Below, piece by piece: positions 1,159 through 63,338 of a stretch of 64,000 bases of DNA. Every line of letters begins with the position of its first letter. Position 1 is the stretch's first letter. The stretch is from an uncultured Spirochaetales bacterium (GTDB lineage Bacteria > Spirochaetota > GWE2-31-10 > CAYYKD01). The notes below the pieces were generated by a model. The model ran no database searches. It saw only the letters and a program-made list of their open reading frames with translations, and was not told the origin of the DNA. The translations under genes were made by a program, and so were the position numbers. Location: NCBI GenBank assembly GCA_964608985.1, contig CAZSQU010000005.1, forward strand, positions 7,463-71,462, written 5' to 3'.

Positions 1159-2742
1159 ATGAAAAAAAATGTATTTTTCCCCGTAATTTTATTGGTCGTA
1201 ACTTTTTTTCTCGGCTGCACTCTCGGTAATTCGGATGAAGATAAAAAAAACAATGATAAACCCGATGAACCTACCGAGCTTTCTAAGGTAACTCTTTATT
1301 TTACAAGCTTTAACTCACAGGAGTCCACTCTTGAAGTAGATGGCTTTAGAGTTTATGGTTATGGTGACGCCTCGCTTGATGTTGATGTTGAACCTGAGTA
1401 TATAACAGTATCAGATGATTCACTAACTGCATGGGTTACTTTGCAGGAGAATAACGGAATCGCAAAAATCAGTTTGTCAGGAACACCGCAAATAACAGAT
1501 ATCTTCCCGTTGGGATTTAAGGACTACAGCAGCGGAGACAACAAAATCGACGCAAATGACAAAGACGAGCTTTCAGGAACAGATAAAAGAAGTAACTATG
1601 ACAACCTCTATGGTATGTATCAACCTGATGCGATAGCTCATTATGAGTATAATGGATTAACCTATCTGTTGACTGCTAATGAGGGAGAAGCAAGAGAATG
1701 GGGACCATTTATTGATGAAGCTAGGGTTAAGGATATAACACTCGATCCAATCGCATTTCCGAATGCTGAAGATTTACAAGAAAATGGAATGATCGGCAGA
1801 CTCAATGTAACGACAAACATATTTTCAAGTACTGCAGTTACAACACACGACAAGCTTTATACATTCGGAGCAAGATCTTTTTCAGTATGGAACGGGACAA
1901 ACGGAGCACTGATTTGGGATAGCGGTGTTGATACAGAACAAAGAGCTGTCGATGCAGGAACTTATGATGACGGAAGAAGCGACAACAAGGGAGCAGAGCC
2001 GGAAGGAATTACAGTCGGTACTGTAGGCGATAAAGTTTTTGCTTTTGTTGGACTTGAAAGAGCAGATGCAGTGCTGATCTATGATATTACAAATCCGGTA
2101 AACCCAGTTTATTCTCAAACATTAACCCATCCGGACAACTCAGATGATGCACCTGAAGGATTATTATTTATCCCGGCTGTTAACAGCCCTTCAAGCAATC
2201 CGCTGCTAATCGTATCGAATGAAGAAAGTGCAACCGTATCAATATGGGAATCCAATTCAAGTGGCGTTTTTGCTCACAAGTCAACAATTCAATTAGATGG
2301 AGGCGTTGGAGCTGCAGAGATCTCCGCTTATTGTAAAACCACAAAAAAACTTTTTGTTGTTAACAACGGAATCGATAATCTTGCATCACAAATCGATATT
2401 ATTGATCTAACAAATATTGACTCGCCGACTGTCTTGTCACCGATTGTCACTACCGATTATGGGACCAATATAAACAGTGTGGCTATAAGAAACGGTCTTC
2501 TTGCTGTAGCATTAGAAGGAGCAAACAAAACTGATACAGGCAAGGCAGTTCTTTTCAAAACATCTGATTCTTCATTTGTCGGACAGATAGGAACAGGAGC
2601 TCAACCGGATATGATTACATTCAGCCCGGATGGAAAGTTCATTCTAACAGCAGATGAAGGTGAACCATCAGATGATTATTCAATCGATCCAAAAGGCTCG
2701 ATAACAGTAATAAGAATTCCTTCAAGCTTTTATTCAAATTAA
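1159..2742 (+). CDS. Choice-of-anchor I family (alkaline-phosphatase-associated beta-propeller) lipoprotein, circularly permuted
   Basis: Lipobox FFLGC. Family motifs EPEYITVS, AWVTLQENN, GMYQPDAIA, TANEGE, FGARSFS, SDNKGAEPEG, GLER, PEGLLFIPA, AAEISAY, NSVA, PDMITFSPDG and DEGEPSDDY..DPKGS are all present. Confidence 0.85.
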   Translation: MKKNVFFPVILLVVTFFLGCTLGNSDEDKKNNDKPDEPTELSKVTLYFTSFNSQESTLEVDGFRVYGYGDASLDVDVEPEYITVSDDSLTAWVTLQENNGIAKISLSGTPQITDIFPLGFKDYSSGDNKIDANDKDELSGTDKRSNYDNLYGMYQPDAIAHYEYNGLTYLLTANEGEAREWGPFIDEARVKDITLDPIAFPNAEDLQENGMIGRLNVTTNIFSSTAVTTHDKLYTFGARSFSVWNGTNGALIWDSGVDTEQRAVDAGTYDDGRSDNKGAEPEGITVGTVGDKVFAFVGLERADAVLIYDITNPVNPVYSQTLTHPDNSDDAPEGLLFIPAVNSPSSNPLLIVSNEESATVSIWESNSSGVFAHKSTIQLDGGVGAAEISAYCKTTKKLFVVNNGIDNLASQIDIIDLTNIDSPTVLSPIVTTDYGTNINSVAIRNGLLAVALEGANKTDTGKAVLFKTSDSSFVGQIGTGAQPDMITFSPDGKFILTADEGEPSDDYSIDPKGSITVIRIPSSFYSN

Positions 2743-2758
2743 CAGATCAAGGATTATA

Positions 2759-2792
2759 TTAAAGGGTTAATATCTTGTATTTAACCCTTTAA
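2759..2792. terminator. Likely bidirectional intrinsic terminator between convergent genes
   Basis: Inverted repeat TTAAAGGGTTAA ... TTAACCCTTTAA. Confidence 0.65.
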
Positions 2793-2891
2793 CAATAATT
2801 GCATAGCAAATCAAAAAAATCATCCATTTATATGAACATCTTTCTTAATCTATGGCACACCTAATCAATTACTTTTGAGTAATATATTTAT

Positions 2892-4610
2892 CTACCGGAT
2901 TATTACATTTATCCTATTGTCATTGTAATCTTCTACATTTATTGAACCGTGATTCTGTACAAATTCCATTACAACATCCGCATAAATCTTGTTCGTGTTG
3001 TAGCCGTTATCTTTATATGGTGTTAACATCCTATAATTATCTCCCCCATCAACCATAAAACTATTCGCCGCAACTCTGTATATCTTAGTTTTTCCGTCAG
3101 CATCTGTTATCTCAAAGGGCCTTCCGTCTGCAAACCTGATGTTATTTACAGTAAAATCTCTCAAAGCAGGCTTAACAATCAGATCCCAACGCAATCCGCT
3201 TGCCTGAAGAAACGATCCCCCGCCATGATTAGAAGCACCATGTACAACTGCTTCAACTATTACCGTTGCAGGGACATCAAGTATCCACATCGTATTTGAA
3301 AAAGGTACAATCCCAATAATGTCACCTCTGGTTACATCACCTTCCCTCATTCCGGCCCGCAAGCCACCGGCGTTTTGAAGAACAATATCTACACCAAGAA
3401 CCTCTTTAAATGCATCAACAACAAAATTTGCAACCGGTATATCGTCACTTCTGCTTATCGCTTTTTCAAATTCAAAATTCCCTCTTAAAACACCGATTTT
3501 CTCATTCTTAATAACCTCAACCCTTTCAACAAATGGTTTTATAATATTGATGATTTCTTGATCCTCGGTAATCGGGTACTCATATGGAAATAGATTACTG
3601 ACTTCGTATTCTCCATTTGCATTTGTTACATTAATGGGAATAATTGAACCGTTCACTTCGGTAAGATTGCCTCTTTTAAACACCATATCAACCCTTCCCA
3701 GATACTTCCCCCATTCACCGGCCTGTACAACCCATGTGTTTTTTATCTTTACCGGCTCCTCTATAAGAGTGTGTGTATCAGAACCGACAATAAGATCTAT
3801 ACCATTGACGATCTTTGCGAGATCCTCATCCCCCCAGCTCCTTTGATCTGCATCTTCCGTGAACTGTGATCTGTCGGCATAATACCCCAGATGTGTTAAG
3901 GCGATTACAACATCAACTTTTTCTTCTTCTCTTAATTTTTTAACTGTTCTGACAGCCACGGCAAAAGGGTCTCCGACTTCTACATTCACAACATTTTCAA
4001 GCTTAGTTGTTGTAACTATACTTGGTTTTACAACTGTAAATATGCCTACTCTGACACCGTTATATTCTCTTATCAAGTATTCATCAAAAATGAGCTGTCT
4101 GTCATTTAAAGGCACATCTCCTCCAATCGGAGTTTTATTTGTTTCTTCAACAAAATAGATATTTGAACCTAAAAAAGCGGTATTTGGAACCAGATTCTTA
4201 AGTGTAACAGTCAAGTGGTCAAAACCATAATCAAACTCATGATTGCCGATTGCAATAGCATCATAATTCATATAACCATAAGCCGCATAATCTATCTCAC
4301 CTTTATTGAGATTTGATTCAATTAATCCGCTTAAGATATCTCCTGCATCAAGAAGCAATACATTATCCACTTCGTCTCTTACCATATTAATAAGAGTTGA
4401 TCTTGCTGCTAATCCGCCCTGCCCCTTTTCTCCTAAAGCAAGCCCGTCACCGTAAGCATTGAATGATGTTGGGTGCCCATGGTAATCGTTTGTATGAAGA
4501 ACAGTAAGTTTAAATGTACCCTTTTCAAACGGAGACCTACTCTTCCCCGAACACCCTGTAACTAAAAACAATACAACTCCAAATAAAAATATTTTTAGAA
4601 AAACCTTCAT
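2892..4610 (-). CDS. ushA: UshA-like 5'-nucleotidase / UDP-sugar hydrolase lipoprotein
   Basis: Motifs HTNDYHG, DAGD, GNHEFDYG, THLG, QAGEWGKYLG, then the C-terminal domain NAGGLR, PFSN, SFLQASG, GGDNY. Lipobox LVTGC. Start moved to ATG 4610, which has an upstream AGGGG RBS. Confidence 0.88.
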   Translation of the reverse strand: MKVFLKIFLFGVVLFLVTGCSGKSRSPFEKGTFKLTVLHTNDYHGHPTSFNAYGDGLALGEKGQGGLAARSTLINMVRDEVDNVLLLDAGDILSGLIESNLNKGEIDYAAYGYMNYDAIAIGNHEFDYGFDHLTVTLKNLVPNTAFLGSNIYFVEETNKTPIGGDVPLNDRQLIFDEYLIREYNGVRVGIFTVVKPSIVTTTKLENVVNVEVGDPFAVAVRTVKKLREEEKVDVVIALTHLGYYADRSQFTEDADQRSWGDEDLAKIVNGIDLIVGSDTHTLIEEPVKIKNTWVVQAGEWGKYLGRVDMVFKRGNLTEVNGSIIPINVTNANGEYEVSNLFPYEYPITEDQEIINIIKPFVERVEVIKNEKIGVLRGNFEFEKAISRSDDIPVANFVVDAFKEVLGVDIVLQNAGGLRAGMREGDVTRGDIIGIVPFSNTMWILDVPATVIVEAVVHGASNHGGGSFLQASGLRWDLIVKPALRDFTVNNIRFADGRPFEITDADGKTKIYRVAANSFMVDGGDNYRMLTPYKDNGYNTNKIYADVVMEFVQNHGSINVEDYNDNRINVIIR

Positions 4611-4638
4611 AATACTAACCCCTTTAAATACAAAATAA

Positions 4639-4668
4639 TGATTAGGTGTCAGATACAACACCTAATCA
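4639..4668. terminator. Intergenic stem-loop (terminator or processing/stabilising hairpin)
   Basis: Perfect 11-bp inverted repeat TGATTAGGTGT-CAGATACA-ACACCTAATCA. Confidence 0.55.
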
Positions 4669-4696
4669 AAAAACAATAAATAATTATAGTAACCTG

Positions 4697-7390
4697 CTAC
4701 TCATAAACAATATCATCTATGTAAAAGTTATAAATACCTGAGCTTCCACCTCTTATAGTGAAAGGATATTCAGATGGTACAATAGTTCCGTCAAGTACCA
4801 ATGTTACCTTAATCCATTGTCCAAGAGTATCAAAACCTGTTGTATAGCTAGCTGATCCTCCTGCAGATATTGTTTCTGATGATAAATCACCCAGAACAAA
4901 GTATCTGTTTCCTGAAGATCCTCCAATCTGAACTACAAGACCTTTAGTGCCTGTCCCCTTAACATAAAAGCTTATTTTAGTGTATGATCCTTTAGAGTTT
5001 AAGTTAGAAGAACACTTGATCATATCACCATTAGATCCGCCCATTGTTTTAATAACTTGCAGACTTCTTGTGCCTGTAACTTTTTCGGTAGTTGAATAGC
5101 TAACAGATGTTACTCCTGTCGTTAGACCAATATCACTTTCCATATCTGAATTAGTAAATGCCAAAACAAGTACCGGCGGTTCACCATCGTTTATTGTCAA
5201 ACCTATATTTACAGTTTTTTCCGGTGCATCTCCTGTTACGGTTACCGTAGCAGTGTAACTACCCTCAGTTATCGTGTCCGGCACTCTATACTCATACGAA
5301 TAAACACCGTCTCCCGAAACTGCGTCACCATTTGTGCCGTCATCGTACATAACTTGTGTACCGCTTCCACCTATAGTTGATAGATTAATCTTAACGGCAG
5401 AAGCTGTTGCACCGTAAAGAGCTTGAACTTTTACACTGAACACAACATCCTCAGATAAATCAAGAACAGAAATTGAATTCGGTGTCGCCTTAGACTGACT
5501 TAAAACAAACTCAGGGTCTGGGTCGAGTAATTGAACGGTTAATTTATTTACACTCGCCATCAGAGTCCCGCCATCAGACTCACCTACTGCATAAACATCA
5601 TAACCGGCACCGGCAGTCAAACCTGAAGAAAATGTTGTTTTGTAACTATAATCCGGGGTATTGACCGTCTTGTATCCTTGAGACACAAGTGTTACTCCTC
5701 CATAGTTAACCCCGGCTTTAACTTCAGCCGTTGTAGGGGCAGTTGCGCCTGCATTAACTACTATAAAGTATATCTTACCCTTGCTTTGCTGTGCAACGAA
5801 ATACTCAAAAGTAGTTTTTGTTATATTGAGAGATTTTGGATGACCGGCAGTCCATTCCGGAGCGATCAAACTCGGAGCGGCAGTTTTAGCGCTTATTTTG
5901 ACCGGCGGATCGATACATGTACCGGCCTCATTGGTTGCAGTAACGAATATATCGTATTCTGTATCAGGTGTTAGATTTGAAAACGAAATATATTTATATA
6001 TATTTAAATTTGATTCACTAACAGTATAGTTTTTTCTAAAATCAGAGTTAAGCAGATCACCGCTTGCATCTTGCCCTGCTTTGACCTGAAGAGCTGAAGG
6101 CGGATTGGAATTCTTAGGCAACAATACGCCGTAAAATGCTCCTATCCTTTTAACAGCCATATTTACCCTTAGAGTCGTAGTGGTAGTATTTGAATCATCA
6201 AGTGCCGGAGGCATACCGGTACTCCATTCCTGAGGAGTATCATCAGCCGCAATTGTTGTTATTGATATTTTGTATGGCGGCGATATCAAAGTCGTTTCTG
6301 TATCGGCTGTAAAATAAAAATCGTATTCGGTTTCCGGTGTTAATGTTGAAAAAGTTAAATAATTATAAGTATTAACATTTTCAGACGATATTGTGTAGTT
6401 CCTTGCAAGACTTGACCCCAAAGTATTTCCTGATCCATCTTTTCCTTCTTTTATTTGTGCACTTGTTGGAGTTGTAGATCCTTTAGGGACAGCAACACCA
6501 TATATTTTACCTGCTTTCTGAACAGCAAGATAGGCCTTAACAATAGTTCCGGAAATGTCTTGATTATCTATCTTAGGTAAACTTCCAAGCGTCCACCCTT
6601 GTTGCGCTGCATTCAAAGTTGTAAATGAGATTTCTTGAGGATTAATCAAAGTAACGGGAGGTGTCTCCATATTTTCGGCTGTCACAACTAAGCGATACTC
6701 TGTTCCTGCGATCAACCCGGTTATTACCCCACTGTATGAAAGCACACCGGCCTGCGATGAACCTTTCTTGACTACATTAATACTTTCTGTAGAAGTACCG
6801 GATATAATAACATCAGAGCTCATATCATCACTTGTATTATCTGTTACTATGTAGTAGATCTTCCCTTTTTTATTAATATCACATCTAAAACCAAATCCTG
6901 TTTCAGATACCCCGTCAGACATCAACTCAGTTATATCCGGAGCAACAGTATCCAATAACGCTGTTTGAAAAGAAAGATTTGCCACAATCCCTTTATTTCC
7001 CGCATCATCCTGTCCAACAATAAAAAGTTCGTATTTAGTTTCCGGATTTAGAAACATACTCGAGACGGCAATCTCATAATAAATATTGGCACTCACTTGT
7101 TTGTTACCGAAAACAATCGCATTCTTCCCGATCTTAAGATCGTCAAAAGAAACACTTTCTGTTCCCTCAGAGTAAACCCCCCAATACACCTTACCTTTTT
7201 CGTTTAATTTACCTGCAATAACAAAACTTCTTCCTGTTATCTCATCAGTTGTGTTATCTACTGCAAAAGCGGGAGCTTTAGTGTCTTTTTTAAAAAACAA
7301 CCCGCCATCATCCGGCAAACTGCAGCCGGAAAAATAAACTAAACTCAAAACCACAATTGTTAGTATAACCGCAAAATTTTTTCTTCCCAT
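4697..7390 (-). CDS. Large surface lipoprotein: five Fn3-like modules, a choice-of-anchor X-like motif and a C-terminal jelly-roll-like domain
   Basis: Lipobox YFSGC. Repeated modules with GK(V/I)Y..V and L.P.T.Y motifs, three of which start WxxGxP. Contains YDDGTNGDAVSGDGVYS and ends NFYIDDIVYE. Confidence 0.7.
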   Translation of the reverse strand: MGRKNFAVILTIVVLSLVYFSGCSLPDDGGLFFKKDTKAPAFAVDNTTDEITGRSFVIAGKLNEKGKVYWGVYSEGTESVSFDDLKIGKNAIVFGNKQVSANIYYEIAVSSMFLNPETKYELFIVGQDDAGNKGIVANLSFQTALLDTVAPDITELMSDGVSETGFGFRCDINKKGKIYYIVTDNTSDDMSSDVIISGTSTESINVVKKGSSQAGVLSYSGVITGLIAGTEYRLVVTAENMETPPVTLINPQEISFTTLNAAQQGWTLGSLPKIDNQDISGTIVKAYLAVQKAGKIYGVAVPKGSTTPTSAQIKEGKDGSGNTLGSSLARNYTISSENVNTYNYLTFSTLTPETEYDFYFTADTETTLISPPYKISITTIAADDTPQEWSTGMPPALDDSNTTTTTLRVNMAVKRIGAFYGVLLPKNSNPPSALQVKAGQDASGDLLNSDFRKNYTVSESNLNIYKYISFSNLTPDTEYDIFVTATNEAGTCIDPPVKISAKTAAPSLIAPEWTAGHPKSLNITKTTFEYFVAQQSKGKIYFIVVNAGATAPTTAEVKAGVNYGGVTLVSQGYKTVNTPDYSYKTTFSSGLTAGAGYDVYAVGESDGGTLMASVNKLTVQLLDPDPEFVLSQSKATPNSISVLDLSEDVVFSVKVQALYGATASAVKINLSTIGGSGTQVMYDDGTNGDAVSGDGVYSYEYRVPDTITEGSYTATVTVTGDAPEKTVNIGLTINDGEPPVLVLAFTNSDMESDIGLTTGVTSVSYSTTEKVTGTRSLQVIKTMGGSNGDMIKCSSNLNSKGSYTKISFYVKGTGTKGLVVQIGGSSGNRYFVLGDLSSETISAGGSASYTTGFDTLGQWIKVTLVLDGTIVPSEYPFTIRGGSSGIYNFYIDDIVYE

Positions 7391-7414
7391 TTTCTAATCC
7401 TCCTTCTTATATAA

Positions 7415-7435
7415 CCCGCATAATGCAGGAAAATT
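7415..7435. mobile_element. Solo terminal repeat of the 172-bp MITE family
   Basis: CCCGCATaATGCAgGAAAATT matches the reverse-complemented right end of the 36609-36780 copy at 19/21. Confidence 0.5.
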
Positions 7436-7441
7436 AACCGA

Positions 7442-8599
7442 TTACCAGATAAGCTCTACCAAATCCGGTTTATCTATGAATGGATTTCTATTGTTTTGAT
7501 ACTCAAAAATCCTATCATTTCTTCTTTTCTCATAATCCGACACAGGATCATCCGAATGCCACTGTTTCAGGACACTCAGTATCCCGATAAAAGGAGCTGT
7601 ATCATTACCGACTATCTCATTAATTTCAAGATCAACAAAATCGTACCCGCCATTATTATCATAAGCTATTGCCATATAAAAAATTATTCTTGCGACATCT
7701 CCCTTATCCGCATCTCTCGGCTCCCAAGAATATGTTGCCGTTCGACAGCCGGTATCGGAAGAGTAACCGGAATAAGGCGAGCTGTCTATATATAACGAGC
7801 CGCCATCATTAAAATCGCGGTTATTTCTTGCACTGTTTACTGTTACATCACACGCTCTCAAGTTATGCGCATCTGTTCCGGGTCCGGTATCTGTTCCAAA
7901 ATCCCCATGCGATTTTGCCCAAACATGCTCTCTATTCCAACCGTCCGTATCTGTACCTGACTTGGTTTTTGGAATTGACCATCCGGTATATAACAGCAAG
8001 ACATTATCAGTATTATCAGGATCTTCATCAGCATATTTTAATATATTCCAGCATTGATCATAATCATATCGAATAAATCCGTCATTAATTATTCTATTCA
8101 GCTCATATCTAATCTCATCAACCGAGAGATCGACAATAGTTCTATAATAACCGTTAAATTGATCATTCAATGAAATATACTTCAAATAAATTGTCATTTT
8201 ATCAAAAATCGAATAATTTGACTCAATTGTTAATATTGCATCATCCTGACCTCCCGATACATTTTGATATTTAATGATAATTTCAGAAACTTCTCGCGGA
8301 TTAGTCTTAACAATTGTAAACTCATTGTTGTCAACACTGTAACATTCACTATTTACCCCGATAATAAAACTTACTTCAGAATTTGATTTATTATTGATAG
8401 TTAGAATATAACTCTCTGTATTCTCATCAAACGCAAGGTCACTGTTATTAGAAATTGCCCTGCCATTTGCACTGATATATATCAATCCCTCTTTCTTCTC
8501 CGGTTGAATTGTATAATCACCAAACCCCGCGTCAACGGGCTGATTACATGATACACAAAAAAATAGTACAATTACGATTAAAACAAAATTAATCCTCAT
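7442..8599 (-). CDS. Endonuclease I / Bsn-type extracellular nuclease lipoprotein
   Basis: WNREHVWAKSHGDFG, GTDAHNLR, VNSARNNRDF, WEPRDADKGDVAR, WHSDDPVS..EKRRN, QNNRNPFID. Lipobox CVSC. Start set to ATG 8599, overlapping the upstream stop. Confidence 0.92.
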   Translation of the reverse strand: MRINFVLIVIVLFFCVSCNQPVDAGFGDYTIQPEKKEGLIYISANGRAISNNSDLAFDENTESYILTINNKSNSEVSFIIGVNSECYSVDNNEFTIVKTNPREVSEIIIKYQNVSGGQDDAILTIESNYSIFDKMTIYLKYISLNDQFNGYYRTIVDLSVDEIRYELNRIINDGFIRYDYDQCWNILKYADEDPDNTDNVLLLYTGWSIPKTKSGTDTDGWNREHVWAKSHGDFGTDTGPGTDAHNLRACDVTVNSARNNRDFNDGGSLYIDSSPYSGYSSDTGCRTATYSWEPRDADKGDVARIIFYMAIAYDNNGGYDFVDLEINEIVGNDTAPFIGILSVLKQWHSDDPVSDYEKRRNDRIFEYQNNRNPFIDKPDLVELIW

Positions 8600-10352
8600 T
8601 ATTTTCAGTCTCAATAATAACTTCCGGCTGCTCAATTGTTAACGGCGCACTGCTATTGTCAACTGTTTGACTAATGTTAACAGGGTTAAATTTCACAACG
8701 GCAGATATCTCCCAGTTTGCAAGATTCATTATGTTTGTTGCCGTAACCATTTCATTTGTCGGATTAGCCCAATCCCATGAAATAACGGGGTTCCAAATAA
8801 CCGTCAATGTAAAATAGTCTTCTACCAATTCAAAATCAAGCTCCAGTTTAGGTGTTGCCTGTTGTAAAAAAGTTGCCGTGTTTAAAGGAATAAATGGTGC
8901 ACCGCTATTCGGATCAAAATTTATCGTATTCTGTATCGGATCAGTAGGAGACGAATAATTTGCGTTACCGGTTGTACCGTCAGTATATCTTCTGATGTTA
9001 TCCGGAATTTTTATTGAAGAATTTGCTATTCCATGATATATATTATAATCTGCTCCTAATGTTAATCTGACAACCTTAGGAAATTCGACTCTAAATTGAA
9101 CAGAAATCTCATGATCAAAAATAAAAGAATTGTAGTTAACCGTAATAAGCGGATCAGTAAAAGACTGATTAGCCCCATTTATTACATGATCCTCAGAATA
9201 TTGTGCTGTATATTGATTAAAATAAGCTGACATATTGAATATATAACCAAACTTCATCTGTACCTGACTTATAGGCCTGATCTCAATAAAAAATGGAACA
9301 TTGATATCGAGGTTAAGATCATAAGTATAATTATAAGTTGTTTTTTGTATGTTATAATCGCCTGAAACATGTCCTGCATAATCTGCATTATATTCTGTAA
9401 GTCTTTCATCAAATGACTCACTGAAATTTCTGTATCCGATCTTAAAGCCGAACCCCGGAATCAAACGAAATCTGTTAAAGCCCGTCAATGCAGGTACAAC
9501 TCTGTGTAGATCAAGTTCCATATCACTATAAATTTCATTTGCTACTCTGAAATATGTAAACTGTTCATTATTTTGCACTCTGTTTCTTATCTCGCCTGCG
9601 GTATTATTCTGAAAATAGTATTTATCCTCTAAGTAAGATACACCATTACCGTCAAAACCGGAATTCAAGATGCCGTTAGTATTAAGCACTACCACAGATT
9701 CAGATAACCCCGTACCATTTATATTGAATGAAATAATATCATAACCTTTTATACTGCTGAAAACCGGCGCCCCTATAAGTCCCTCCGTAAAACGGAAACC
9801 TATTCCTGCCTCAAGAAATCCGTATCCTGAAGAGGTATTTCCGCTTCTTTTATTTCCATTGAGTTCCCAATCAGTTATATTTAATAATCCGCCGGTATAA
9901 TTCAATTCATAATCATTCTTGGTTTCAGACAACTCATCAATATGGGTCCCTCCACCCAACATAAAATTTACTGCCGCCGAATCAGTAAGATTGTAGCCGA
10001 GATAGGCATATAATGAATTGTTTATAGCCGACCATTTATAACTATCAACTGTGTTCTTATAAATAATCTCCCCAAGATTATCATATGAAGTGTTATTGAA
10101 AGCATTGGTATAATCAAGTGTATTCATTATATTCGCTTTAATACAGAGAATAATATCATCATTAATCAAATAAGCATTACTTAAAACAAACTCAGGCGAA
10201 TAAGTTCCAACAGGACTAAATACAGTAAAATCAAATATAAAATTATCTATTATATTTACCAGATCAAGCCGATCTATTTTATCTTCCTCATCCCATCCGT
10301 AAAAGTTAATAGTCACAAACAAAATTAAAATCAGCATAATAATCTTCTTCAA
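8589..10352 (-). CDS. Hypothetical exported beta-strand-rich (putative outer-membrane) protein
   Basis: TTG start with an AAGGAG RBS and an SPI-type signal peptide. Many alternating-hydrophobic, aromatic-rich strands. No family recognised. Confidence 0.6.
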   Translation of the reverse strand: MKKIIMLILILFVTINFYGWDEEDKIDRLDLVNIIDNFIFDFTVFSPVGTYSPEFVLSNAYLINDDIILCIKANIMNTLDYTNAFNNTSYDNLGEIIYKNTVDSYKWSAINNSLYAYLGYNLTDSAAVNFMLGGGTHIDELSETKNDYELNYTGGLLNITDWELNGNKRSGNTSSGYGFLEAGIGFRFTEGLIGAPVFSSIKGYDIISFNINGTGLSESVVVLNTNGILNSGFDGNGVSYLEDKYYFQNNTAGEIRNRVQNNEQFTYFRVANEIYSDMELDLHRVVPALTGFNRFRLIPGFGFKIGYRNFSESFDERLTEYNADYAGHVSGDYNIQKTTYNYTYDLNLDINVPFFIEIRPISQVQMKFGYIFNMSAYFNQYTAQYSEDHVINGANQSFTDPLITVNYNSFIFDHEISVQFRVEFPKVVRLTLGADYNIYHGIANSSIKIPDNIRRYTDGTTGNANYSSPTDPIQNTINFDPNSGAPFIPLNTATFLQQATPKLELDFELVEDYFTLTVIWNPVISWDWANPTNEMVTATNIMNLANWEISAVVKFNPVNISQTVDNSSAPLTIEQPEVIIETENNED

Positions 10353-10377
10353 TTTCTTCTCCTTATTTTATATAAAA

Positions 10378-12564
10378 CTAAAATGTAAACCTCGCAATAA
10401 GTGGTTCATGGTCGCTAAAAGGCGAATTACTGCTTGAACTAAAATTAAATTCGCAATTAACTCTAACAACATCAAATTCAGGATTATTATTATTTAAGCC
10501 GTTAGAAATTAATATGTGATCAAGCACTTGAGAAATCCCGTTATGTATATAAGTATATCTTTCATTTATTGGTAATTTATCGATTAAACTATAAAGAATA
10601 TCCCCTTTTAATATTGTCAGCGTTTTAGAATATTGATAATCGTTATAATCCCCCAACAACACTACTTTCGCTTCTGAATCCATTGAAATTATCTTCGAAA
10701 AAAAATCATTTAAAACTGCTGCCTGACCCCACCTCTTCGTTTCTGATCCTCTGAATGGCGGCTGATATATCCCGTATTCCGGCGCATCACCTCTTTTGGA
10801 GCTTAAATGATTGATTGCAACAAAAATCTTTTCACCATTAAAAATAAATTCGGCAACCAAAGACTTCCTTGTACTAAGAAAGGAGTCACTCAAGGGTTCG
10901 ATTTGTCCAGGATTAGACGAAAGTGTTACTTCCCCGTTTTCCCTGATTACCTGCACTCCCTCATCTTCGCCCCCCCCTTCCTTTGAGACAAAATCAACCC
11001 TTTCTGAGTTATAAATAAAAGCGCATCTAATATTTGACCCCGGCTCTCCCCCGTCATAATTATATTCAGGACTCACATAACAAAAAGTGTAATTGTGACC
11101 TAAACCGGCAAACTCATTGATCTTAGAACATAGTTCTGTTAATGTTGCATCACTCGTTATTACTCCATCATCCATACTTCCGCTATCGTCCTGAATCTCA
11201 ACTAAACCAACTATATCAGGTGCTTCAAGATTATTGGCAATAATACCTGCTATTCCCCAAAATTTCTTTCGTAAATTATTGTTAACCGCCGGATCATAAC
11301 CGTAAATAGTAAAATTCTCCACATTAAAACTTGCAATCGTAAGTTTATCGGCATCACCGATTAATGTTGTTGACTCAGATGATAATACACCGGTAAATGC
11401 CGGCATCTCAGTAGCTCTAACCGTATAACTGCCCTTTGAATAATCAAGAATGCCGACAATTGAGCCTTCAGATGACATTCCGACTTTTAAAGTTGATGAT
11501 ATTGTTGCTGTCAGTTTTGAAATATTAATAACTGTCGTAACATGATCATTATAGCTCGATACAAGAGCACCACCCCGAACGGATCGATTAGTAATATGTT
11601 CTCCGTTATCAATAGCTACAAATATCTCAGAATAGCTTGTCGGACCGGTAATAACCGGCTTATCAATTTGAACCCTCATAAACTCTAAAGACTCATACAA
11701 ATCAATTGCATTATAATCCGGCTCTAAAACCCAATAATCATCATTGATCAAACCGTAATAATTATTGCCGACTATTTCATGGGGTACATTCCTACCGTTT
11801 TTACCAATAATTACGGGAGTAGGTAATTGATTGCCCGATGAAAGAATTTCTATTGAAGTAGCTCCCACACTCAGATTTGTTCTTGTGGCACTATCATAGG
11901 TTTTATAAGGCTCATCTGTAGTATAATCAACCTCTAAAACATATCCTTCCTTAATTATAATCAGATCTCCAACACTGCAATTAAAATCAATGCTTGTTAC
12001 TACTTTAACACCTTCTGAGGTTCTATTATCAAGATCATCAAACGGCGATTGTATAAACACATTTCTTATAATATCCTCATAGGTTTTAGGATCACTTGTT
12101 ATTTCGGTTCCTATAACAACACCTATTACATTGGTTACACGAAGGTTTTCATATGATGATTTATGACCTGTACCTTGTATCTCGCTGACTGAGATAACCC
12201 TTTCAGAAAAACTTCTATTGATTAATAGAAAGTCATAATCTGTTTTACTTGCAGATAGATCGATTAACGAGGTCATAGACTGCGGATAGATTACTTTACC
12301 TTCCCTATATGCCGAAATATTATAGTTGCCTTCTGCAAGATTATCTATGATATATTCTCCATTTTCGTTAGTAAAAACCCGCTTTTCGTTATCGCCGCTT
12401 AGACTTACAAGAACGCCGGAAATCGGATCTCCGCTTAAATCTGTAATAATGCCGCTTATTTGATAGACACCGCTTTCATAATTCCTTATATTTACCTTAA
12501 AAACCTGTTCCACCTGACAAGAGAATAGTATAATAATAAACAATCCAATAAACTTAATATTCAT
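10378..12564 (-). CDS. Endonuclease/exonuclease/phosphatase (EEP) family nuclease lipoprotein with Ig-like and OB-like N-terminal domains
   Basis: ISEIQG-like OB start VSEIQGTGHKS. Catalytic motifs SFNVENF, VEIQD, NHLSSK, GDYND, LDHIL, SDHEP. Lipobox ILFSC. ATG 12564 has a GGAG RBS. Confidence 0.88.
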   Translation of the reverse strand: MNIKFIGLFIIILFSCQVEQVFKVNIRNYESGVYQISGIITDLSGDPISGVLVSLSGDNEKRVFTNENGEYIIDNLAEGNYNISAYREGKVIYPQSMTSLIDLSASKTDYDFLLINRSFSERVISVSEIQGTGHKSSYENLRVTNVIGVVIGTEITSDPKTYEDIIRNVFIQSPFDDLDNRTSEGVKVVTSIDFNCSVGDLIIIKEGYVLEVDYTTDEPYKTYDSATRTNLSVGATSIEILSSGNQLPTPVIIGKNGRNVPHEIVGNNYYGLINDDYWVLEPDYNAIDLYESLEFMRVQIDKPVITGPTSYSEIFVAIDNGEHITNRSVRGGALVSSYNDHVTTVINISKLTATISSTLKVGMSSEGSIVGILDYSKGSYTVRATEMPAFTGVLSSESTTLIGDADKLTIASFNVENFTIYGYDPAVNNNLRKKFWGIAGIIANNLEAPDIVGLVEIQDDSGSMDDGVITSDATLTELCSKINEFAGLGHNYTFCYVSPEYNYDGGEPGSNIRCAFIYNSERVDFVSKEGGGEDEGVQVIRENGEVTLSSNPGQIEPLSDSFLSTRKSLVAEFIFNGEKIFVAINHLSSKRGDAPEYGIYQPPFRGSETKRWGQAAVLNDFFSKIISMDSEAKVVLLGDYNDYQYSKTLTILKGDILYSLIDKLPINERYTYIHNGISQVLDHILISNGLNNNNPEFDVVRVNCEFNFSSSSNSPFSDHEPLIARFTF

Positions 12565-12577
12565 ATTACTCTCCATG

Positions 12578-15500
12578 CTATGGATCAAAACTATGTCTGC
12601 CGAGATCAAAAAAAGCATCTTTTATAGCTTGAGACCACTCTTCATTGTTCCTGGGATCTCTGTTTCCGCTATTTGACGGGGACATAACCGTATCTTTCCT
12701 AATAAAAGTTTTATCCTTACCAAAAACCACCCCGCCACCGACACCTATCATATCTATCATTATACCATTCTTAAATAATGCGACCTGATCATTACCGCTG
12801 AACCCCAGAACTCCTGAACTCGAAGTTGAATATAATGCATCGGCAAGAGCCTGCATCCTCGGATCACAATCGGATCTGTTACTACATGCAACAAAAACAT
12901 CTCCGTGATTTAAATTGCCGCTTAAATTCTGAATTACGGTAAATAATCCTGAACCGTTCGAATCCCTTCTTAATGAATAATCTGAAAGATCAACAGTACT
13001 ACCGGTAAAATTTGCTATTTCAATCACCTTGTTATACCCACCACCCTCAATATATTCAGAAATAAAAAGATCTGTTGCTGTATATTGACTGTCTGCACGG
13101 GTCGTTTCTGTATATAAATTTATTCCTCCCGAAATCCCGCCATAAATGTATTCGGGATACAATGCAATCCGGTATTGACTATTTGGCAGTAATCCCTCAA
13201 TTACCCCCACAACATCCTCACCTGCATTTACAGCAAAAAACCCGTGAGATTCGTAAGCATAGCCATTTGCAGCTTTTCCGGATCGTACACTTTCTACCGT
13301 AAAGACATCTGTATGGGAATCGGCTGCATAAAAAACAAGTGCATCTGTGTCAAGCAGTAAATTCAGCTTAATTTTAGTTTTTTTGGACTCAAAAATCGGA
13401 TAACCGACATCCCATGTCGGAACAACCGATTCTACACCGCCTGACCTGAATTTAAATACACCGATAATAGGATCGTGATCAGTCGGTCTCATAAAAGACG
13501 AATAATCAGAGCAAGTGTGTATTATATCAAAATATTCTAATTTACTAAGCATACCGGATGAAACCAGCATATTATCAAGAATCTGTGAATTTCCTTCATA
13601 ATTATATGAATATCTGCGCTGTAATGGAACTTTATATATCAGATTAGTCAGTCCAACATCTTCAAACACCCTGAGCGCCGGAGAAAAATGAAAATCATTA
13701 AAATCGCCGAGTGATATTATATTTGCTCCGGGGTCCATATTCAAAATTTCTCGGATAAAATCAGCAACAACTCGTGATTGTTCAATTCTTGTAACTTCCG
13801 ATCCTCTCTCCGGAGGCTGATACCTGCCTTGCAAGGGATCATCTCCCCCTTTTGCCGTAAGATGATTTACTATTACAAAAACCTTTTCCCCCATAAACTC
13901 AAATTCACAAGCCAGAGATTTTCGCGTACGGTTAAATACCTCATTTAAAGGTTCAATACGCCCGGGATTAATCGAAAGTGCCGGTTTCCCGTTTCTAAAA
14001 ACCAGATCAACATTCTCTGTCGATACTCTATTCACAAATCCCGGATCAGATAAAAGCTCCTCATCATTCGGGCTGTCCACAAATCGGACCCGTTTAGTAT
14101 TGAACAATACTACATTTCTAATATTACCCCCCGGCTCTCCCCCTTCTGAATTATAGATCGGATTTATCTGTCTGTAATCATAAAAACAACTATCTGTATC
14201 AACAAAAGAATGAATTGCATCAATAAGATCATCTAAAGTATTATTACAGTCAACAACGCCGTCATCAAGATTCCCCGAATTATCCTGCACCTCAATTAAC
14301 GAAATTATATCGGGTGACCTAAGATTATAGGAAATTATCGATGCTATATCCTTTGTTTTATCATAACTGCCGTTTGGTGCAGAAGATGAAGGGTGATTCT
14401 CAACATTAAACGAGCAAACGGTCAACATTCCGTCTGATCGTGTATGACCGGAAACTTCGCGGCTAAAAATCGATCTTCTTTCAGAATAATTCTCAACGGC
14501 CAGCAATTTATATCTCTCATAGTCATAACAGATTATTCCTTTAACATTTGATTCAAATCTATCCCCCACCTTAACATGAGGACTTTGAATAAACCTGTCC
14601 GAAACGGCAATATTAAACGGATTTGCAGTTATATAATCTTCGCCAACCAAAACGCCCCCGTTTACTGTTTTTATTCCATTGTAACCGTTATCCGGGGCAA
14701 TATAAAAAGCTCCATAATCATCAACACCACCGGTAACGACAGAATCAACCACCTCTACCAGCATTCCTTCAATCGACTCAAAAAAGTCAATAGCATTCTC
14801 ATCAGGTCTTAGGAAATGCTCTATACTGCCCGCATCATTACCCTGTAAATTTGAAGGATAATAGTTCAAAGGAATTTTTCTAAAGTTCTCACCTATCTTT
14901 ACAGGATCAGGGAGCGGAAAGCCCGTTCCGATTTTTACTATTTCTGTAGTAGAAGCCCTTATTGTAGTAACAGGCAAATTCTCTGAATAGGTTGATCCCC
15001 CCGGAGTGTTTTCGATAGACTCCTCAATCACACCCGACTTAATTACCAGTAAATCACCGACAGAAAAAACATCACCTGTGACAAGATAAGAAGAATTAAG
15101 TCGAATCCCTTCTGATGTTGCAATATCATAGTCAGGAAACGGATTGGCAATATAAACTACCTGATACTCATCATTATCTACATCTGTTCCAAAATACACC
15201 GCCACAACAACACCAAAAACATTATTTACCTCAAGCCCATTATAGATTGATTGTGCTCTGTTACCTTGAATTTCTGAAATTGTCTTAAATTCACCATTAA
15301 ACCCGGTATATATCTCATCGTACTCATAACAATAAAAATCTATGTTATTAGAATCCTCATTTATTGTTATTGTGTTGTATCCACTCTGCAATAACGACAC
15401 AACTCCTTCTTTAATATGTGTCAATGTATAACTTCCGTTTGGAATGTTTTCAAAGGAAAACTCTCCTGAGCCATCCACAGTGGATTGAGCAGTTATGCGC

Positions 15501-15679
15501 CCATTTAATAAAACAGTTCCACCGATAACCGGCGTCCCGCCGGTATATAATTCAGCATTCCCGGAAATATTGAAAGTTTTATCAGATCCTTTTTTGGGTT
15601 TATATATCAAATTATCATTGCAGCCGATTAAGACAAAGAATGTTATAAGATATAAAAATAATAATTTATTTAAAGCCAT
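12578..15679 (-). CDS. EEP family extracellular nuclease lipoprotein with an Fn3-like module and C-terminal lamin-tail domain (ExeM/Xds-like architecture)
   Basis: ISEIQG, SFNVENH, IEVQD, NHLTAK, GDFND, LDNML, TDHDP. Lamin-tail motif FISEYIEG..YNKVIEIANFTG..VDLS.Y. Lipobox LIGC. Confidence 0.88.
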   Translation of the reverse strand: MALNKLLFLYLITFFVLIGCNDNLIYKPKKGSDKTFNISGNAELYTGGTPVIGGTVLLNGRITAQSTVDGSGEFSFENIPNGSYTLTHIKEGVVSLLQSGYNTITINEDSNNIDFYCYEYDEIYTGFNGEFKTISEIQGNRAQSIYNGLEVNNVFGVVVAVYFGTDVDNDEYQVVYIANPFPDYDIATSEGIRLNSSYLVTGDVFSVGDLLVIKSGVIEESIENTPGGSTYSENLPVTTIRASTTEIVKIGTGFPLPDPVKIGENFRKIPLNYYPSNLQGNDAGSIEHFLRPDENAIDFFESIEGMLVEVVDSVVTGGVDDYGAFYIAPDNGYNGIKTVNGGVLVGEDYITANPFNIAVSDRFIQSPHVKVGDRFESNVKGIICYDYERYKLLAVENYSERRSIFSREVSGHTRSDGMLTVCSFNVENHPSSSAPNGSYDKTKDIASIISYNLRSPDIISLIEVQDNSGNLDDGVVDCNNTLDDLIDAIHSFVDTDSCFYDYRQINPIYNSEGGEPGGNIRNVVLFNTKRVRFVDSPNDEELLSDPGFVNRVSTENVDLVFRNGKPALSINPGRIEPLNEVFNRTRKSLACEFEFMGEKVFVIVNHLTAKGGDDPLQGRYQPPERGSEVTRIEQSRVVADFIREILNMDPGANIISLGDFNDFHFSPALRVFEDVGLTNLIYKVPLQRRYSYNYEGNSQILDNMLVSSGMLSKLEYFDIIHTCSDYSSFMRPTDHDPIIGVFKFRSGGVESVVPTWDVGYPIFESKKTKIKLNLLLDTDALVFYAADSHTDVFTVESVRSGKAANGYAYESHGFFAVNAGEDVVGVIEGLLPNSQYRIALYPEYIYGGISGGINLYTETTRADSQYTATDLFISEYIEGGGYNKVIEIANFTGSTVDLSDYSLRRDSNGSGLFTVIQNLSGNLNHGDVFVACSNRSDCDPRMQALADALYSTSSSGVLGFSGNDQVALFKNGIMIDMIGVGGGVVFGKDKTFIRKDTVMSPSNSGNRDPRNNEEWSQAIKDAFFDLGRHSFDP

Positions 15680-15803
15680 AAGCAAACTTATAATTGATTA
15701 AAGTTAAGAAATTTTAAATAATTGGTTAATTTTAACACACGCAACTGTAAAAATAAATTTACCCCTGTTCAATGTTGACAAACTCTTATAAAATTGATTA
15801 TAT

Positions 15804-16754
15804 GTGGCCATGTTAAATTCAACAATTAAGATAAAGCCGGTTTTTTTCTATCTATTAATAATTGTAGGGATGTTTTTCTGGGGGATGTCATTTATATGGG
15901 TTAAAATAATGTATAAATATTACGGACCATTTACCGTAATAACCCTTAGAATGGCATTATCAGTCCTATTAATGTTTTTTATTGACCTTATTTTCAGGCA
16001 AAATGAAAAAATTGCATTAAAAGACATTAAATATTTTGCTCTTGTCGCTTTTTTTGAACCCTTTATGTATTTTGTTTTTGAGGGATTCGGCATAAAACTG
16101 GTTTCTTCAACTGTTGCCGCAGTTATTGTCGGAACAATACCTCTGTTTAGTCCTGTTTTTGCATTCCTGCTTTATAAAGAAAAGCTTTCAATTTACGGTT
16201 TTATCGGCATGATTATCTCGTTTGCCGGCGTCTGCATCATGGTTTTGGACAGAAATATGAATTTTATCTACTCTAAAGCAGGCATTGCATTGATGTTTGG
16301 AGCGGTTTTTTCGACTGTATTCTATGTTCTTGTCATTAAAAAAATCGGCGTGAGATACAAACCCTTAACTATAATTAAATATCAAAATCTTATTGGTCTT
16401 ATATATTTTATACCGTTTTTTGCCGTCATTGAGTTAAAACAGTCATTAACTGTCGCTTTTAACTTTGAAATGATTACAACACTTCTATTACTTGCCGTTT
16501 TCCCATCAACACTCTCATTTATTGCGTTTAACATTTCTATCAATAGAATAGGCATCGGCAAATCAAATTTGTTTACCAATTTAATTCCTGTTTTTAGTGC
16601 TGTATTTTCATTCCTTCTGCTCGGCGAACAGTTCGATCTCAAGAAAATTATTTCAATTATAATCATAATCAGCGGTGTATCACTGGCACAGATAAACTTT
16701 AAGAAAAAAGCGACGATTTTATCCGAAAAAATTAATATGACTGCTAATAAATAG
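15804..16754 (+). CDS. DMT/EamA family transporter
   Basis: About 10 TM segments in two repeats; FWGMSF, FEGFGIK, NLIPVFS. The start could be ATG 15810. Confidence 0.88.
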   Translation: MAMLNSTIKIKPVFFYLLIIVGMFFWGMSFIWVKIMYKYYGPFTVITLRMALSVLLMFFIDLIFRQNEKIALKDIKYFALVAFFEPFMYFVFEGFGIKLVSSTVAAVIVGTIPLFSPVFAFLLYKEKLSIYGFIGMIISFAGVCIMVLDRNMNFIYSKAGIALMFGAVFSTVFYVLVIKKIGVRYKPLTIIKYQNLIGLIYFIPFFAVIELKQSLTVAFNFEMITTLLLLAVFPSTLSFIAFNISINRIGIGKSNLFTNLIPVFSAVFSFLLLGEQFDLKKIISIIIIISGVSLAQINFKKKATILSEKINMTANK

Positions 16755-16821
16755 TGTTTGATATTCTTTAGTTAAAGTGTTATTAATTAAAAATTCACAT
16801 AATAACTCCGGAGGCTTAACT

Positions 16822-30794: not shown

Positions 30795-30858
30795 AATAAA
30801 CCCTATCGTTACAGGGATATTATTTTTTGAGACTGCATTTAATTAAATAGCAGATAAC

Positions 30859-30968
30859 ACCTTCTCTCATCCGGACTCTACCGTCGGCACCGGAGTTACA
30901 CCGGTTCAACCATTATGGCTCGCGGGCTTTAACCGCCGGTAAGGATTTGCACCTACCCCTGAAGGAAT
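30859..30968 (-). promoter_or_regulatory. FMN riboswitch (RFN element)
   Basis: The minus strand reads CTTCAGGGGTAGGTGCAAATCCTTACCGGCGGTTAAAGCCCGCGAGCC...GAACCGGTGTAACTCCGGTGCCGACGGTAGAGTCCGGATGAGAGAAG. This matches the RFN consensus and lies directly upstream of ribD. Confidence 0.97.
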
Positions 30969-31015
30969 GGTGATAAAATAACAATTTTTTAGAATAAAGT
31001 AAAGTAAAAATCAAT

Positions 31016-42289: not shown

Positions 42290-42349
42290 GAAATATTTTA
42301 ATGTTAAGCACACTTCAATTATTGTCGATACATAATCGGGAGTTTGTTT

Positions 42350-46806: not shown

Positions 46807-47037
46807 GAAACTAACTCCAAAGAGAATAAATCGGAGATATAATACATAAATTATTACTTTTTTACAAGATTTAATTTATTAATCATTTAATTATACTTGA
46901 TTATTTTAGCTTGAAGTTTTAATATATTGTATTATTAAAGATAAGTATTATTACTTTCATCCTTCAAACTAAGCTTTTGAATGCCGATAATTTAGAGATT
47001 GTATGGAAAATGTTTCTTAATAATTATGGAGTTTATT

Positions 47038-63319: not shown

Positions 63320-63338
63320 ATCCGGCTCCTTTTATGCT

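Follow-up and report, generated by a model that had tools for sequence, protein, structure and literature searches.

Gene content of the candidate system

The window analyzed here, by which we mean the whole 64,000-nucleotide (nt) stretch of contig CAZSQU010000005.1, harbors between positions 2892 and 15679 a candidate system for the use of extracellular nucleic acids, comprising three predicted lipoprotein nucleases, a predicted outer-membrane β-barrel, a multi-Fn3 lipoprotein, and a 5′-nucleotidase lipoprotein. To the earlier description of this DNA, made from the sequence alone (hereafter the sequence-only reading), we add a conserved nuclease–barrel module, the fusion of the barrel to a 5′-nucleotidase in related loci, and a structural assignment of a protein previously listed as an orphan. 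The open reading frames (ORFs) are ordered as one plus-strand gene (1159–2742), six co-directional minus-strand genes (2892 to ~15679–15685), and a divergent plus-strand gene (15804–16754); six packed minus-strand genes and a convergent neighbor had been proposed, and all seven ORFs are found. The six genes of the candidate system, with lengths in amino acids (aa), are as follows.

2892–4610, minus strand: UshA-like 5′-nucleotidase lipoprotein, 572 aa, with Metallophos and 5_nucleotid_C domains
4697–7390, minus strand: multi-Fn3 lipoprotein, 897 aa, with Fn3-like repeats and a choice-of-anchor X domain
7442–8599, minus strand: endonuclease I lipoprotein, 385 aa, with an Endonuclease_1 domain (E = 8.5e-35)
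8589–10352, minus strand: predicted outer-membrane β-barrel, 582–587 aa, without a Pfam or NCBIfam family
10378–12564, minus strand: lipoprotein nuclease 2, 728 aa, with CarboxypepD_reg and endonuclease/exonuclease/phosphatase (EEP) domains
12578–15679, minus strand: lipoprotein nuclease 1, 1033–1035 aa, with CarboxypepD_reg, EEP, and lamin-tail (LTD) domains

With the most likely start codons, these genes are separated by 13, 25, −11, 51, and 86 nt, the −11 being an overlap between the barrel gene's end and the endonuclease I gene's start, and they form an operon-like unit. Lipobox cysteines, judged by eye from the N termini, are seen in six of the seven products when the convergent neighbor is included (FLGC, VTGC in the nucleotidase, FSGC, CVSC, LFSC in nuclease 2, and LIGC in nuclease 1), in agreement with the sequence-only reading, and the β-rich barrel protein is the exception. 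G+C content is even over the window (0.33–0.39), and the same locus is also present on an 84-kb JGI metagenome contig (sample 3300020048) and in ENA and Logan assemblies. The GatB encoded in the window shares 64% identity with its counterparts in “Spirochaetes bacterium GWD1_27_9” and “GWF1_31_7,” with further Spirochaetota and Spirochaetales metagenome-assembled genomes (MAGs) as the next matches in the list, and on this basis the host is an uncultured member of the Spirochaetota. The spirochaete origin suspected from the outset is also backed by the three named genomes in which the barrel family was found in the GTDB species set, all of them Spirochaetota, in a scan with a single peptide pattern and correspondingly limited sensitivity.

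The two EEP nucleases are paralogs (35% identity by BLASTP), each with a lipoprotein signal peptide and with Exo_endo_phos_3 and Exo_endo_phos matches above the Pfam cut-offs. Nuclease 1 comprises a CarboxypepD_reg-like domain, an OB-like region, the EEP domain, an immunoglobulin (Ig)/Fn3-like domain, and a C-terminal LTD (Pfam E = 4.5e-13 for LTD and 1.2e-9 for Exo_endo_phos_3), whereas nuclease 2 consists of a CarboxypepD_reg domain, an OB-like region, and the EEP catalytic domain and lacks the LTD. The motif set FNVEN, (V/I)E(I/V)QD, NHL, GD(Y/F)ND, and (S/T)DH(E/D)P is found in both proteins, in nuclease 1 by way of its BLASTP alignment to nuclease 2. Residues 160–728 of nuclease 2 align with Streptococcus pyogenes SpnA (PDB 9sf9/9sf8; E = 1e-84), the nearest match to the EEP nucleases among solved structures, with ~570 residues aligned; the closest relative of nuclease 2 is a protein from a syntenic locus (P0004, 42% identity), and orthologs of nuclease 1 hold the same position in four related loci (L005, L008, L009, and L011). 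Nuclease 1 matches the NCBIfam ExeM/NucH model with E = 1.3e-26, below its curated cut-off: the two EEP proteins score 110 and 94 bits against the 300 bits of NF033681 (ExeM_NucH_DNase), and 93 bits is reached against the 1300 bits of NF033680 (ExeM). Because these scores fall under the cut-offs, the proteins are best described, as far as profile scores go, as divergent relatives of ExeM/NucH that lie outside NCBI's own membership threshold. Between the EEP domain and the LTD of nuclease 1, the segment encoded at 13075–13450 (minus strand) resembles one Fn3-like repeat of the 897-aa lipoprotein; the similarity is weak (E = 0.016), so that the segment was not accepted as a copy of that repeat, and it hints at a shared module.

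The third nuclease has an Ig-like domain on its N-terminal side and, after it, an Endonuclease_1 domain that covers model positions 5–234 of 235 in PF04231 (121 bits against a cut-off of 25). Its EH dyad is retained, and its DxHNL...VNxxRxN and NPF blocks align with those of Vvn (PDB 1oup); together with the EEP motif sets, these blocks bear out the statement that the catalytic motifs of all three nucleases are intact. The equivalog model for Escherichia coli EndA gives just 22 bits against a required 372, and by this score the protein is a member of the PF04231 family and not an EndA ortholog. An ortholog with 47% identity is encoded directly 3′ of a barrel–nucleotidase fusion in the Spirochaetota MAG PPR_0589 (L012), and a homolog of the 897-aa lipoprotein (33–36% identity, E = 3e-93) holds in L012 the same relative position as in the window. 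The latter protein has about six Fn3-like repeats, which give weak profile matches, a detected choice_anch_X domain, and a C-terminal β-sandwich-like domain, and is a candidate surface binding or scaffold protein.

The nucleotidase (Metallophos, E = 3.4e-12; 5_nucleotid_C, E = 4.6e-23) has the features of a UshA-type enzyme, namely the DxH, GD, and GNHE motifs (here DYHG, GDILSG, and GNHE) ahead of a 5_nucleotid_C domain. Its best NCBIfam model is the UshA equivalog NF007109, against which it scores 270 bits over the full length where 600 are required; because of this shortfall, the product of 2892–4610 should be called UshA-like rather than UshA.

The barrel family, its nucleotidase fusion, and conserved gene order

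The sequence-only reading treated the product of 8589–10352 as an orphan β-rich protein, a description that we replace: the protein belongs to a rare family, with 26 members found by an exhaustive HMMER search among 1.84 billion representative proteins, and is fused to a 5′-nucleotidase in several of its relatives. Translation likely starts at the TTG at 10352 (587 aa) because the resulting MKKII... N terminus matches those of the homologs; the public gene call (582 aa) starts instead at an ATG (10337) that gives no such match. A cysteine-free signal peptide is followed by a WDEEDKI motif; toward the C terminus, a conserved TNI(L/M)NLANW helix precedes a last strand ending in KF and a 32-residue acidic tail. 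Across the family, a cysteine-free signal peptide is likewise followed by (W/Y)D(E/D)ED, the most conserved stretch is TN(I/L)(L/M)NLANW, and the C-terminal pattern is ...NLANWxxSxV(V/I)KF, with two members stopping exactly at that Phe. In outer-membrane proteins, a Phe at the C terminus typically serves as the signal for assembly.

Profile searches of Pfam and NCBIfam return no family for the window barrel, Pfam gives no match for any of 12 family members even at E values up to 10, a family profile finds nothing in the PDB by sequence, and a word-index search retrieved a single relative (27% identity); no description of this locus or of the barrel family was found in the papers retrieved. An AlphaFold2 model built from a 25-sequence alignment has a predicted local distance difference test score (pLDDT) of 85 and a predicted template-modeling score (pTM) of 0.80, and shows a plain up-and-down succession of ~17 β elements (an even number is expected), many of which span 20–29 residues; the strand pattern recurs in the barrel half of a second model, made for the fusion protein P0123. 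Each long strand contains a run of ~10 residues of alternating hydrophobicity. Foldseek searches of the PDB place outer-membrane barrels in all top positions (PfeA, Fiu, OprC, BtuB, and FrpB; probability 1.0), and a specific structural relative sought among these hits had to be rejected, as they are generic TonB-receptor barrels. Since a Sec signal peptide, a confident all-β meander, barrel matches, alternating strands, and a C-terminal aromatic residue are thus found together, we conclude from these predictions that the former orphan is an outer-membrane β-barrel of an undescribed family.

The three best matches to the barrel (35–41% identity) are proteins of 1071–1086 aa in which the orphan domain occupies residues 1 to ~560 and is followed by Metallophos and 5_nucleotid_C domains; two shorter matches are fragments of the same architecture. 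In all, the fusion is seen in five proteins (P0123, P0124, P0125, P0126, and P0130) and in five loci (L005, L007, L008, L012, and L015). Because relatives fuse the barrel domain to a 5′-nucleotidase, the barrel of the window can be linked to the nucleotidase gene three genes downstream, the repeated fusion acting as a Rosetta-stone connection. Among three 5′-nucleotidase paralogs in the window, the locus enzyme is nearest to the barrel-fused domains (222–225 bits, versus 152–170 and 51–78 for the others) and alone carries DxHG, GDxxxG, and GNHE; by these measures, it is the split counterpart of the domain that relatives fuse to the barrel.

To place the window in context, the contigs encoding barrel relatives were looked up, and all fetched loci were surveyed in a tblastn census. 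Genes are listed in order of transcription, and a fusion denotes a barrel–nucleotidase fusion.

Window: EEP-LTD, EEP, barrel, endonuclease I, Fn3 protein, nucleotidase
L005/L006: EEP-LTD, EEP-LTD, fusion
L008: EEP-LTD (1034 aa), EEP (735 aa), fusion
L007: EEP (cut by the contig end), fusion
L009/L016/L010: helix-turn-helix regulator, EEP-LTD, EEP, barrel, CNT nucleoside transporter, LTD protein
L011: EEP-LTD, EEP, barrel
L012 (Spirochaetota MAG PPR_0589; upstream cut): fusion, endonuclease I, homolog of the 897-aa Fn3 protein
L015 (activated sludge; upstream cut): fusion

An EEP nuclease gene lies immediately upstream of the barrel in all six loci with a readable upstream flank, and two such genes are present in five of these six, that is, wherever the flank is long enough. 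Every EEP protein in the loci surveyed has a lipobox and no barrel does, gaps between genes range from −17 to 114 nt, and a CNT nucleoside transporter gene stands directly 3′ of the barrel in one relative's operon (L009, L010, and L020). Since between-locus protein identities are only 28–42%, the shared order reflects conservation and not the recent descent of a single contig. The conserved core is thus EEP-LTD, EEP, and barrel, usually with a nucleotidase, and endonuclease I and the Fn3 protein are accessories common to at least one other spirochaete. With this recurrent order and the fusion in five loci, the core survives comparison across relatives. The GTDB and metagenome scans each used one peptide pattern and returned few loci, so that the census is limited by sensitivity. 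Small secreted proteins without a Pfam family are encoded 3′ of two of the fusions (L005, 10548–10919; L007, 5524–5766) and have no counterpart in the window, and a partial gene after the L008 fusion, considered as a possible endonuclease I, proved to encode an Ig-like protein.

Distant paralogs of the barrel (23–28% identity) do not adjoin nuclease genes. One (L014/L018; 9947–11506 in L018) lies directly downstream of two genes for MgtE Mg2+ transporters, a second (L004, 1718–3367) is divergent from a Na/phosphate (Pi) cotransporter gene, and a third (L013, 9914–11545) is found among signaling genes encoding CHASE2 and histidine-kinase proteins. Taken as a whole, the family may be one of general channels in spirochaetes, a reading that fits because distant paralogs adjoin the MgtE pair and the Na/Pi cotransporter.

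Proposed function and alternatives

We assign a probability of about 0.6 to the reading that the six genes are a nucleic acid-scavenging operon in which the barrel is an outer-membrane conduit coupled to a periplasmic nucleotidase. The parts of this reading differ in strength: that the locus serves the breakdown of nucleic acids and the capture of the products is quite likely, the specific role of the barrel as conduit falls just short of even odds, and the proposal that the family is a novel channel for nucleotides or oligonucleotides, in physical linkage with a periplasmic 5′-nucleotidase, is tentative, with the odds leaning against it. In the proposed route, family membership and motifs suggest that three lipid-anchored nucleases, two ExeM/Xds/SpnA-type EEP paralogs (one with a lamin-tail domain) and a sugar-nonspecific endonuclease I, would cut DNA or RNA at the envelope to oligo- and mononucleotides, while the multi-Fn3 lipoprotein may hold the polymer. 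The products would cross the outer membrane via the barrel, and the 5′-nucleotidase, at the periplasmic side, would release nucleosides and phosphate; its tether would be covalent, at the barrel C terminus, in most relatives and a lipid anchor on a separate protein here. Inner-membrane carriers, of the CNT/NupC type in one relative, would then import nucleosides and phosphate. We infer the membrane side of each enzyme, the substrate of the barrel, and the physiological purpose, for which phosphorus, nitrogen, or carbon supply and nucleoside salvage are the candidates.

In bacterial outer-membrane barrels, the N and C termini both point into the periplasm, where OmpA has its C-terminal domain. 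The nucleotidase is placed in the periplasm by this rule, since a domain that follows the last barrel strand would be periplasmic as in OmpA-type proteins, and the placement matches E. coli UshA, which is periplasmic, as are the sites of action of the Vibrio phosphatases UshA, CpdB, and PhoX. In E. coli, the Tsx nucleoside channel, periplasmic UshA, and the CNT carrier NupC provide the same flow as that proposed here, from channel to periplasmic 5′-nucleotidase to CNT carrier; Tsx differs in that it is 12-stranded, has no sequence or Pfam relation to the barrel family, and passes nucleosides rather than nucleotides. To our knowledge, no fusion of a channel to a nucleotidase has been described.

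Several observations weigh against this reading. The related loci amount to approximately eight independent contigs, a small and entirely metagenomic sample; two of them (L009 and L011) have no nucleotidase nearby, and no inner-membrane nucleoside or phosphate importer was identified in the window locus. The TM-scores of the Foldseek matches are just 0.2–0.29, which supports the fold class and no specific relative, and the barrel is net acidic (60 Asp and Glu, 30 Lys and Arg), unlike a simple anion channel. As regards co-transcription, promoter and terminator scans gave counts within those of shuffled controls and were not used as operon evidence because they do not exceed these controls, and a hairpin (4639–4668) stands ahead of the nucleotidase gene.

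The strongest alternative, which we nevertheless regard as unlikely, is that the barrel is a surface anchor or translocon and not an uptake channel, either displaying the nucleotidase in the manner of an inverse autotransporter or flipping the neighboring lipoprotein nucleases outward, like Neisseria Slam. The gene for a Slam or intimin/invasin barrel adjoins that for the surface protein it serves, or the barrel forms the N-terminal part of a fusion with that protein, and the present barrel shares this placement: it always adjoins lipoprotein genes, all EEP proteins have lipoboxes, and the enzyme domain follows the barrel on its C-terminal side, the arrangement of type Ve autotransporters. Furthermore, SpnA-type nucleases and 5′-nucleotidases of Gram-positive bacteria work at the cell surface, and no established route is known by which spirochaetes export their surface lipoproteins. 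The barrel itself argues otherwise, as none of the 12 family members searched matches the Slam (DUF560) or inverse-autotransporter models of Pfam at E values up to 10, and its ~17 long strands are far above the 12 of type Ve barrels; it is much larger and has no TPR or LysM periplasmic domain. In a pure autotransporter, the standalone barrels of the window, L009, and L011 would be without cargo, and the distant paralogs adjoin ion and phosphate transporters rather than lipoproteins. That the family is specifically a spirochaete translocon that surfaces the neighboring lipoprotein nucleases together with the fused or lipidated nucleotidase is quite improbable; if true, it would be the first candidate for the spirochaete surface-lipoprotein export machinery, here serving DNA feeding, and would touch on a question of spirochaete cell biology that is still open.

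A second alternative gives the enzymes a role in the extracellular matrix or in competition, not in nutrition, with the barrel an unrelated co-transcribed porin; the enzymes might trim biofilm DNA, allow escape from DNA traps, or make (deoxy)adenosine, as do ExeM, Xds and Dns, or SpnA and S5nA. ExeM is required for normal biofilm and remains cell-associated (PMC6085458), Xds and Dns control biofilm DNA (PMC6746945), and SpnA is a virulence nuclease (PMC13601614). SpnA and the surface 5′-nucleotidase S5nA of S. pyogenes share with this locus the pairing of a cell-anchored EEP nuclease with a nucleotidase; they are, however, LPXTG wall-anchored virulence factors of a Gram-positive organism, with no outer membrane, barrel, or operon. 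We consider this alternative improbable, given that the barrel–nucleotidase fusion in five loci and the CNT gene in one relative's operon point to product capture and that the contigs derive from environmental metagenomes, including activated sludge, and not from hosts, although a matrix role and nutrition are not mutually exclusive.

Relative to a scavenging operon with a barrel conduit, the closest known enzymes are those of Vibrio and Shewanella, in which the genes for the use of extracellular DNA are dispersed, whereas here they form one operon-like unit. The chemical route is the same (DNA to nucleotides to nucleosides and phosphate), as are the enzyme families, in that EEP proteins with a lamin-tail domain correspond to Xds/ExeM, endonuclease I to Dns/EndA, and the 5′-nucleotidase to UshA. 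No dedicated outer-membrane protein is known from the Vibrio and Shewanella systems, in contrast to the barrel here. The enzymes compared are Xds, Dns, UshA, CpdB, and PhoX of Vibrio and ExeM, ExeS, and EndA of Shewanella (PMC4714964, PMC6085458, PMC6746945), and Vibrio requires secreted nucleases together with UshA, CpdB, and PhoX to use extracellular DNA (PMC4714964). In ExeM, the LTD is N-terminal and the anchor is a GlyGly-CTERM segment (PMC6085458); in nuclease 1, the LTD is C-terminal and the lipid anchor N-terminal.

The closest parallel in organization is the ddbABCDEF locus of Bacteroidales, a DNA-utilization locus resembling a polysaccharide utilization locus (PUL), which encodes three nucleases, the TonB-dependent transporter DdbC, its DUF5689 partner DdbD, and one further lipoprotein (Sharan et al., PNAS 2025, PMC12478041). 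Both systems combine, in a single locus, several secreted or lipoprotein nucleases, an outer-membrane component, and an additional lipoprotein that may have a binding function, and thereby apply a PUL-like logic to DNA. They differ in the membrane component, DdbC and DdbD in one and an unrelated barrel family without a Pfam entry in the other, in the nucleotidase, which is absent from ddb and is in the module, often fused to the barrel, here, and in host (Bacteroidales versus Spirochaetota). Profile searches of the locus genes detect no TonB-dependent receptor or SusC/SusD, in line with the sequence-only reading, and no DUF5689, and the barrel has no plug domain, so that the SusC-like and SusD-like pair that defines a PUL is not found. 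Comparison of the transport components indicates that the spirochaete locus is analogous, not homologous, to ddb. The novelty originally claimed therefore holds for an operon with a new membrane component and lapses for the PUL-like DNA-utilization concept, which has been known since ddb was described (2025; PMC12478041).

The core of the original proposal, in which nucleases, a nucleotidase, a pore, and a binder are packaged together, gains from synteny and from the fusion, and its extension to the choice-of-anchor I and EamA genes is not supported (see below). In a very improbable last alternative, the locus would take up DNA for natural transformation, by analogy with the relation of the Bacteroidales ddb loci to the Riemerella transformation system, the barrel passing DNA strands and the nucleases processing incoming DNA; endonuclease I-type EndA enzymes do take part in transformation in some bacteria. 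Although ddbBCD is homologous to the Riemerella nuclease and outer-membrane transporter module (PMC12478041), homologs of DdbC and DdbD were not detected in the locus, genes for competence (ComEA, ComEC, DprA, or pilus genes) are absent from the locus and its surroundings within the window, and a fused 5′-nucleotidase and an operon-encoded nucleoside transporter would destroy genetic information rather than preserve it.

Sediments and sludge contain much phosphorus, nitrogen, and carbon in the form of extracellular DNA and RNA, and the consumers of these large pools and the machinery involved are poorly known. Our analysis suggests that some free-living spirochaetes may carry a compact, self-contained DNA- or RNA-feeding apparatus unlike the TonB-dependent ddb system, and gives a barrel family previously without annotation a testable function through its nucleotidase fusion and upstream nucleases. 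If the family does prove to be a nucleotide channel coupled to an enzyme, it would represent a new type of outer-membrane channel–enzyme pairing, and its gene would serve well as a marker of DNA-feeding spirochaetes in metagenomes.

Flanking genes and other observations

The flanking genes and noncoding features of the locus are as follows.

1159–2742, plus strand: choice-of-anchor I lipoprotein (Pfam E = 2e-102; NCBIfam NF038117, 442 bits against a cut-off of 300)
4639–4668, minus strand: hairpin with a 13-bp stem and a T-rich tail, within the 86-nt gap ahead of the nucleotidase gene
15680–15803: divergent intergenic region, the expected position of the operon promoter, with TGTTAAAAT as an extended −10-like element, by eye
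15804–16754, plus strand: EamA/DMT-family membrane transporter (PF00892, E = 1.5e-44)

Membership of the convergent and divergent genes in the system is doubtful, adjacency being what connects them to it. The choice-of-anchor I protein clearly belongs to its family (PF22494 as well as NF038117) and has no sequence relative in the PDB. This family is described as a Ca-binding seven-bladed propeller of the MSP130 family whose function in bacteria is unestablished (PMC11878542); a phosphatase role considered for it cannot be claimed, as the literature gives a Ca-binding propeller only. The gene occurs in none of the other barrel loci in the tblastn census, and its inclusion in the system is accordingly dropped. 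The same census finds the EamA gene in none of these loci, and its product matches only exporter-type NCBIfam models, far under their cut-offs; the suggestion that it imports nucleosides is not upheld, and the relative with a carrier gene in its operon has one of the CNT/NupC type.

The intergenic region upstream of nuclease 1 (15680–15803) should hold the operon promoter, and we infer only from its position and appearance that TGTTAAAAT is the extended −10-like element. The hairpin at 4639–4668 may be an attenuator or an RNA-stability element and is treated as a lead only, the total of terminator-like sites in the region being no higher than in shuffled controls. The 11-mer TGATTAGGTGT forms both arms of this hairpin, just upstream of the nucleotidase gene, and recurs on the same strand at 2857–2867, just downstream of that gene. 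These repeats could mark a relocated nucleotidase gene, which in relatives is fused to the barrel, or be chance; as 4 of 100 shuffles match the count, the sign of relocation was set aside as a possible chance match.

The two other 5′-nucleotidase-like genes of the window lie outside the locus. The first (46999–48564, plus strand, 521 aa) encodes a secreted protein with the C-terminal domain and without metallophosphatase motifs, which may be a non-catalytic nucleotide- or nucleoside-binding protein. The second (61178–63320, minus strand) has GNQE for GNHE, lacks DxH, matches only 5_nucleotid_C in Pfam, and continues after this domain into a β-rich C-terminal region of ~290 aa; this region of the gene, whose ORF was taken as 61178–63103, was considered as a barrel relative and rejected on a negative hhalign result. 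The frame runs upstream to an in-frame TAG at ~63266–63268, directly after the signal-peptide-like LNRLLLILLLFTTSLHS, for which a nonsense mutation, an assembly error, and read-through are possible explanations.

Directly after the EamA gene, 16777–20940 (plus strand) encodes a 1387-aa, activase-like protein in which a BcrAD_BadFG ATPase is fused to DUF2229. Upstream of a run of minus-strand genes, the last of which (27993–29174) was recognized by eye as RibBA-like, is a flavin mononucleotide (FMN) riboswitch at 30855–30970 (minus strand; 112 bits, above the Rfam gathering score). Finally, two genes (31059–32414, minus strand, and 42344–43444, plus strand) encode secreted proteins with long poly-serine tracts, one of which is a lipoprotein with RTX calcium-binding repeats.

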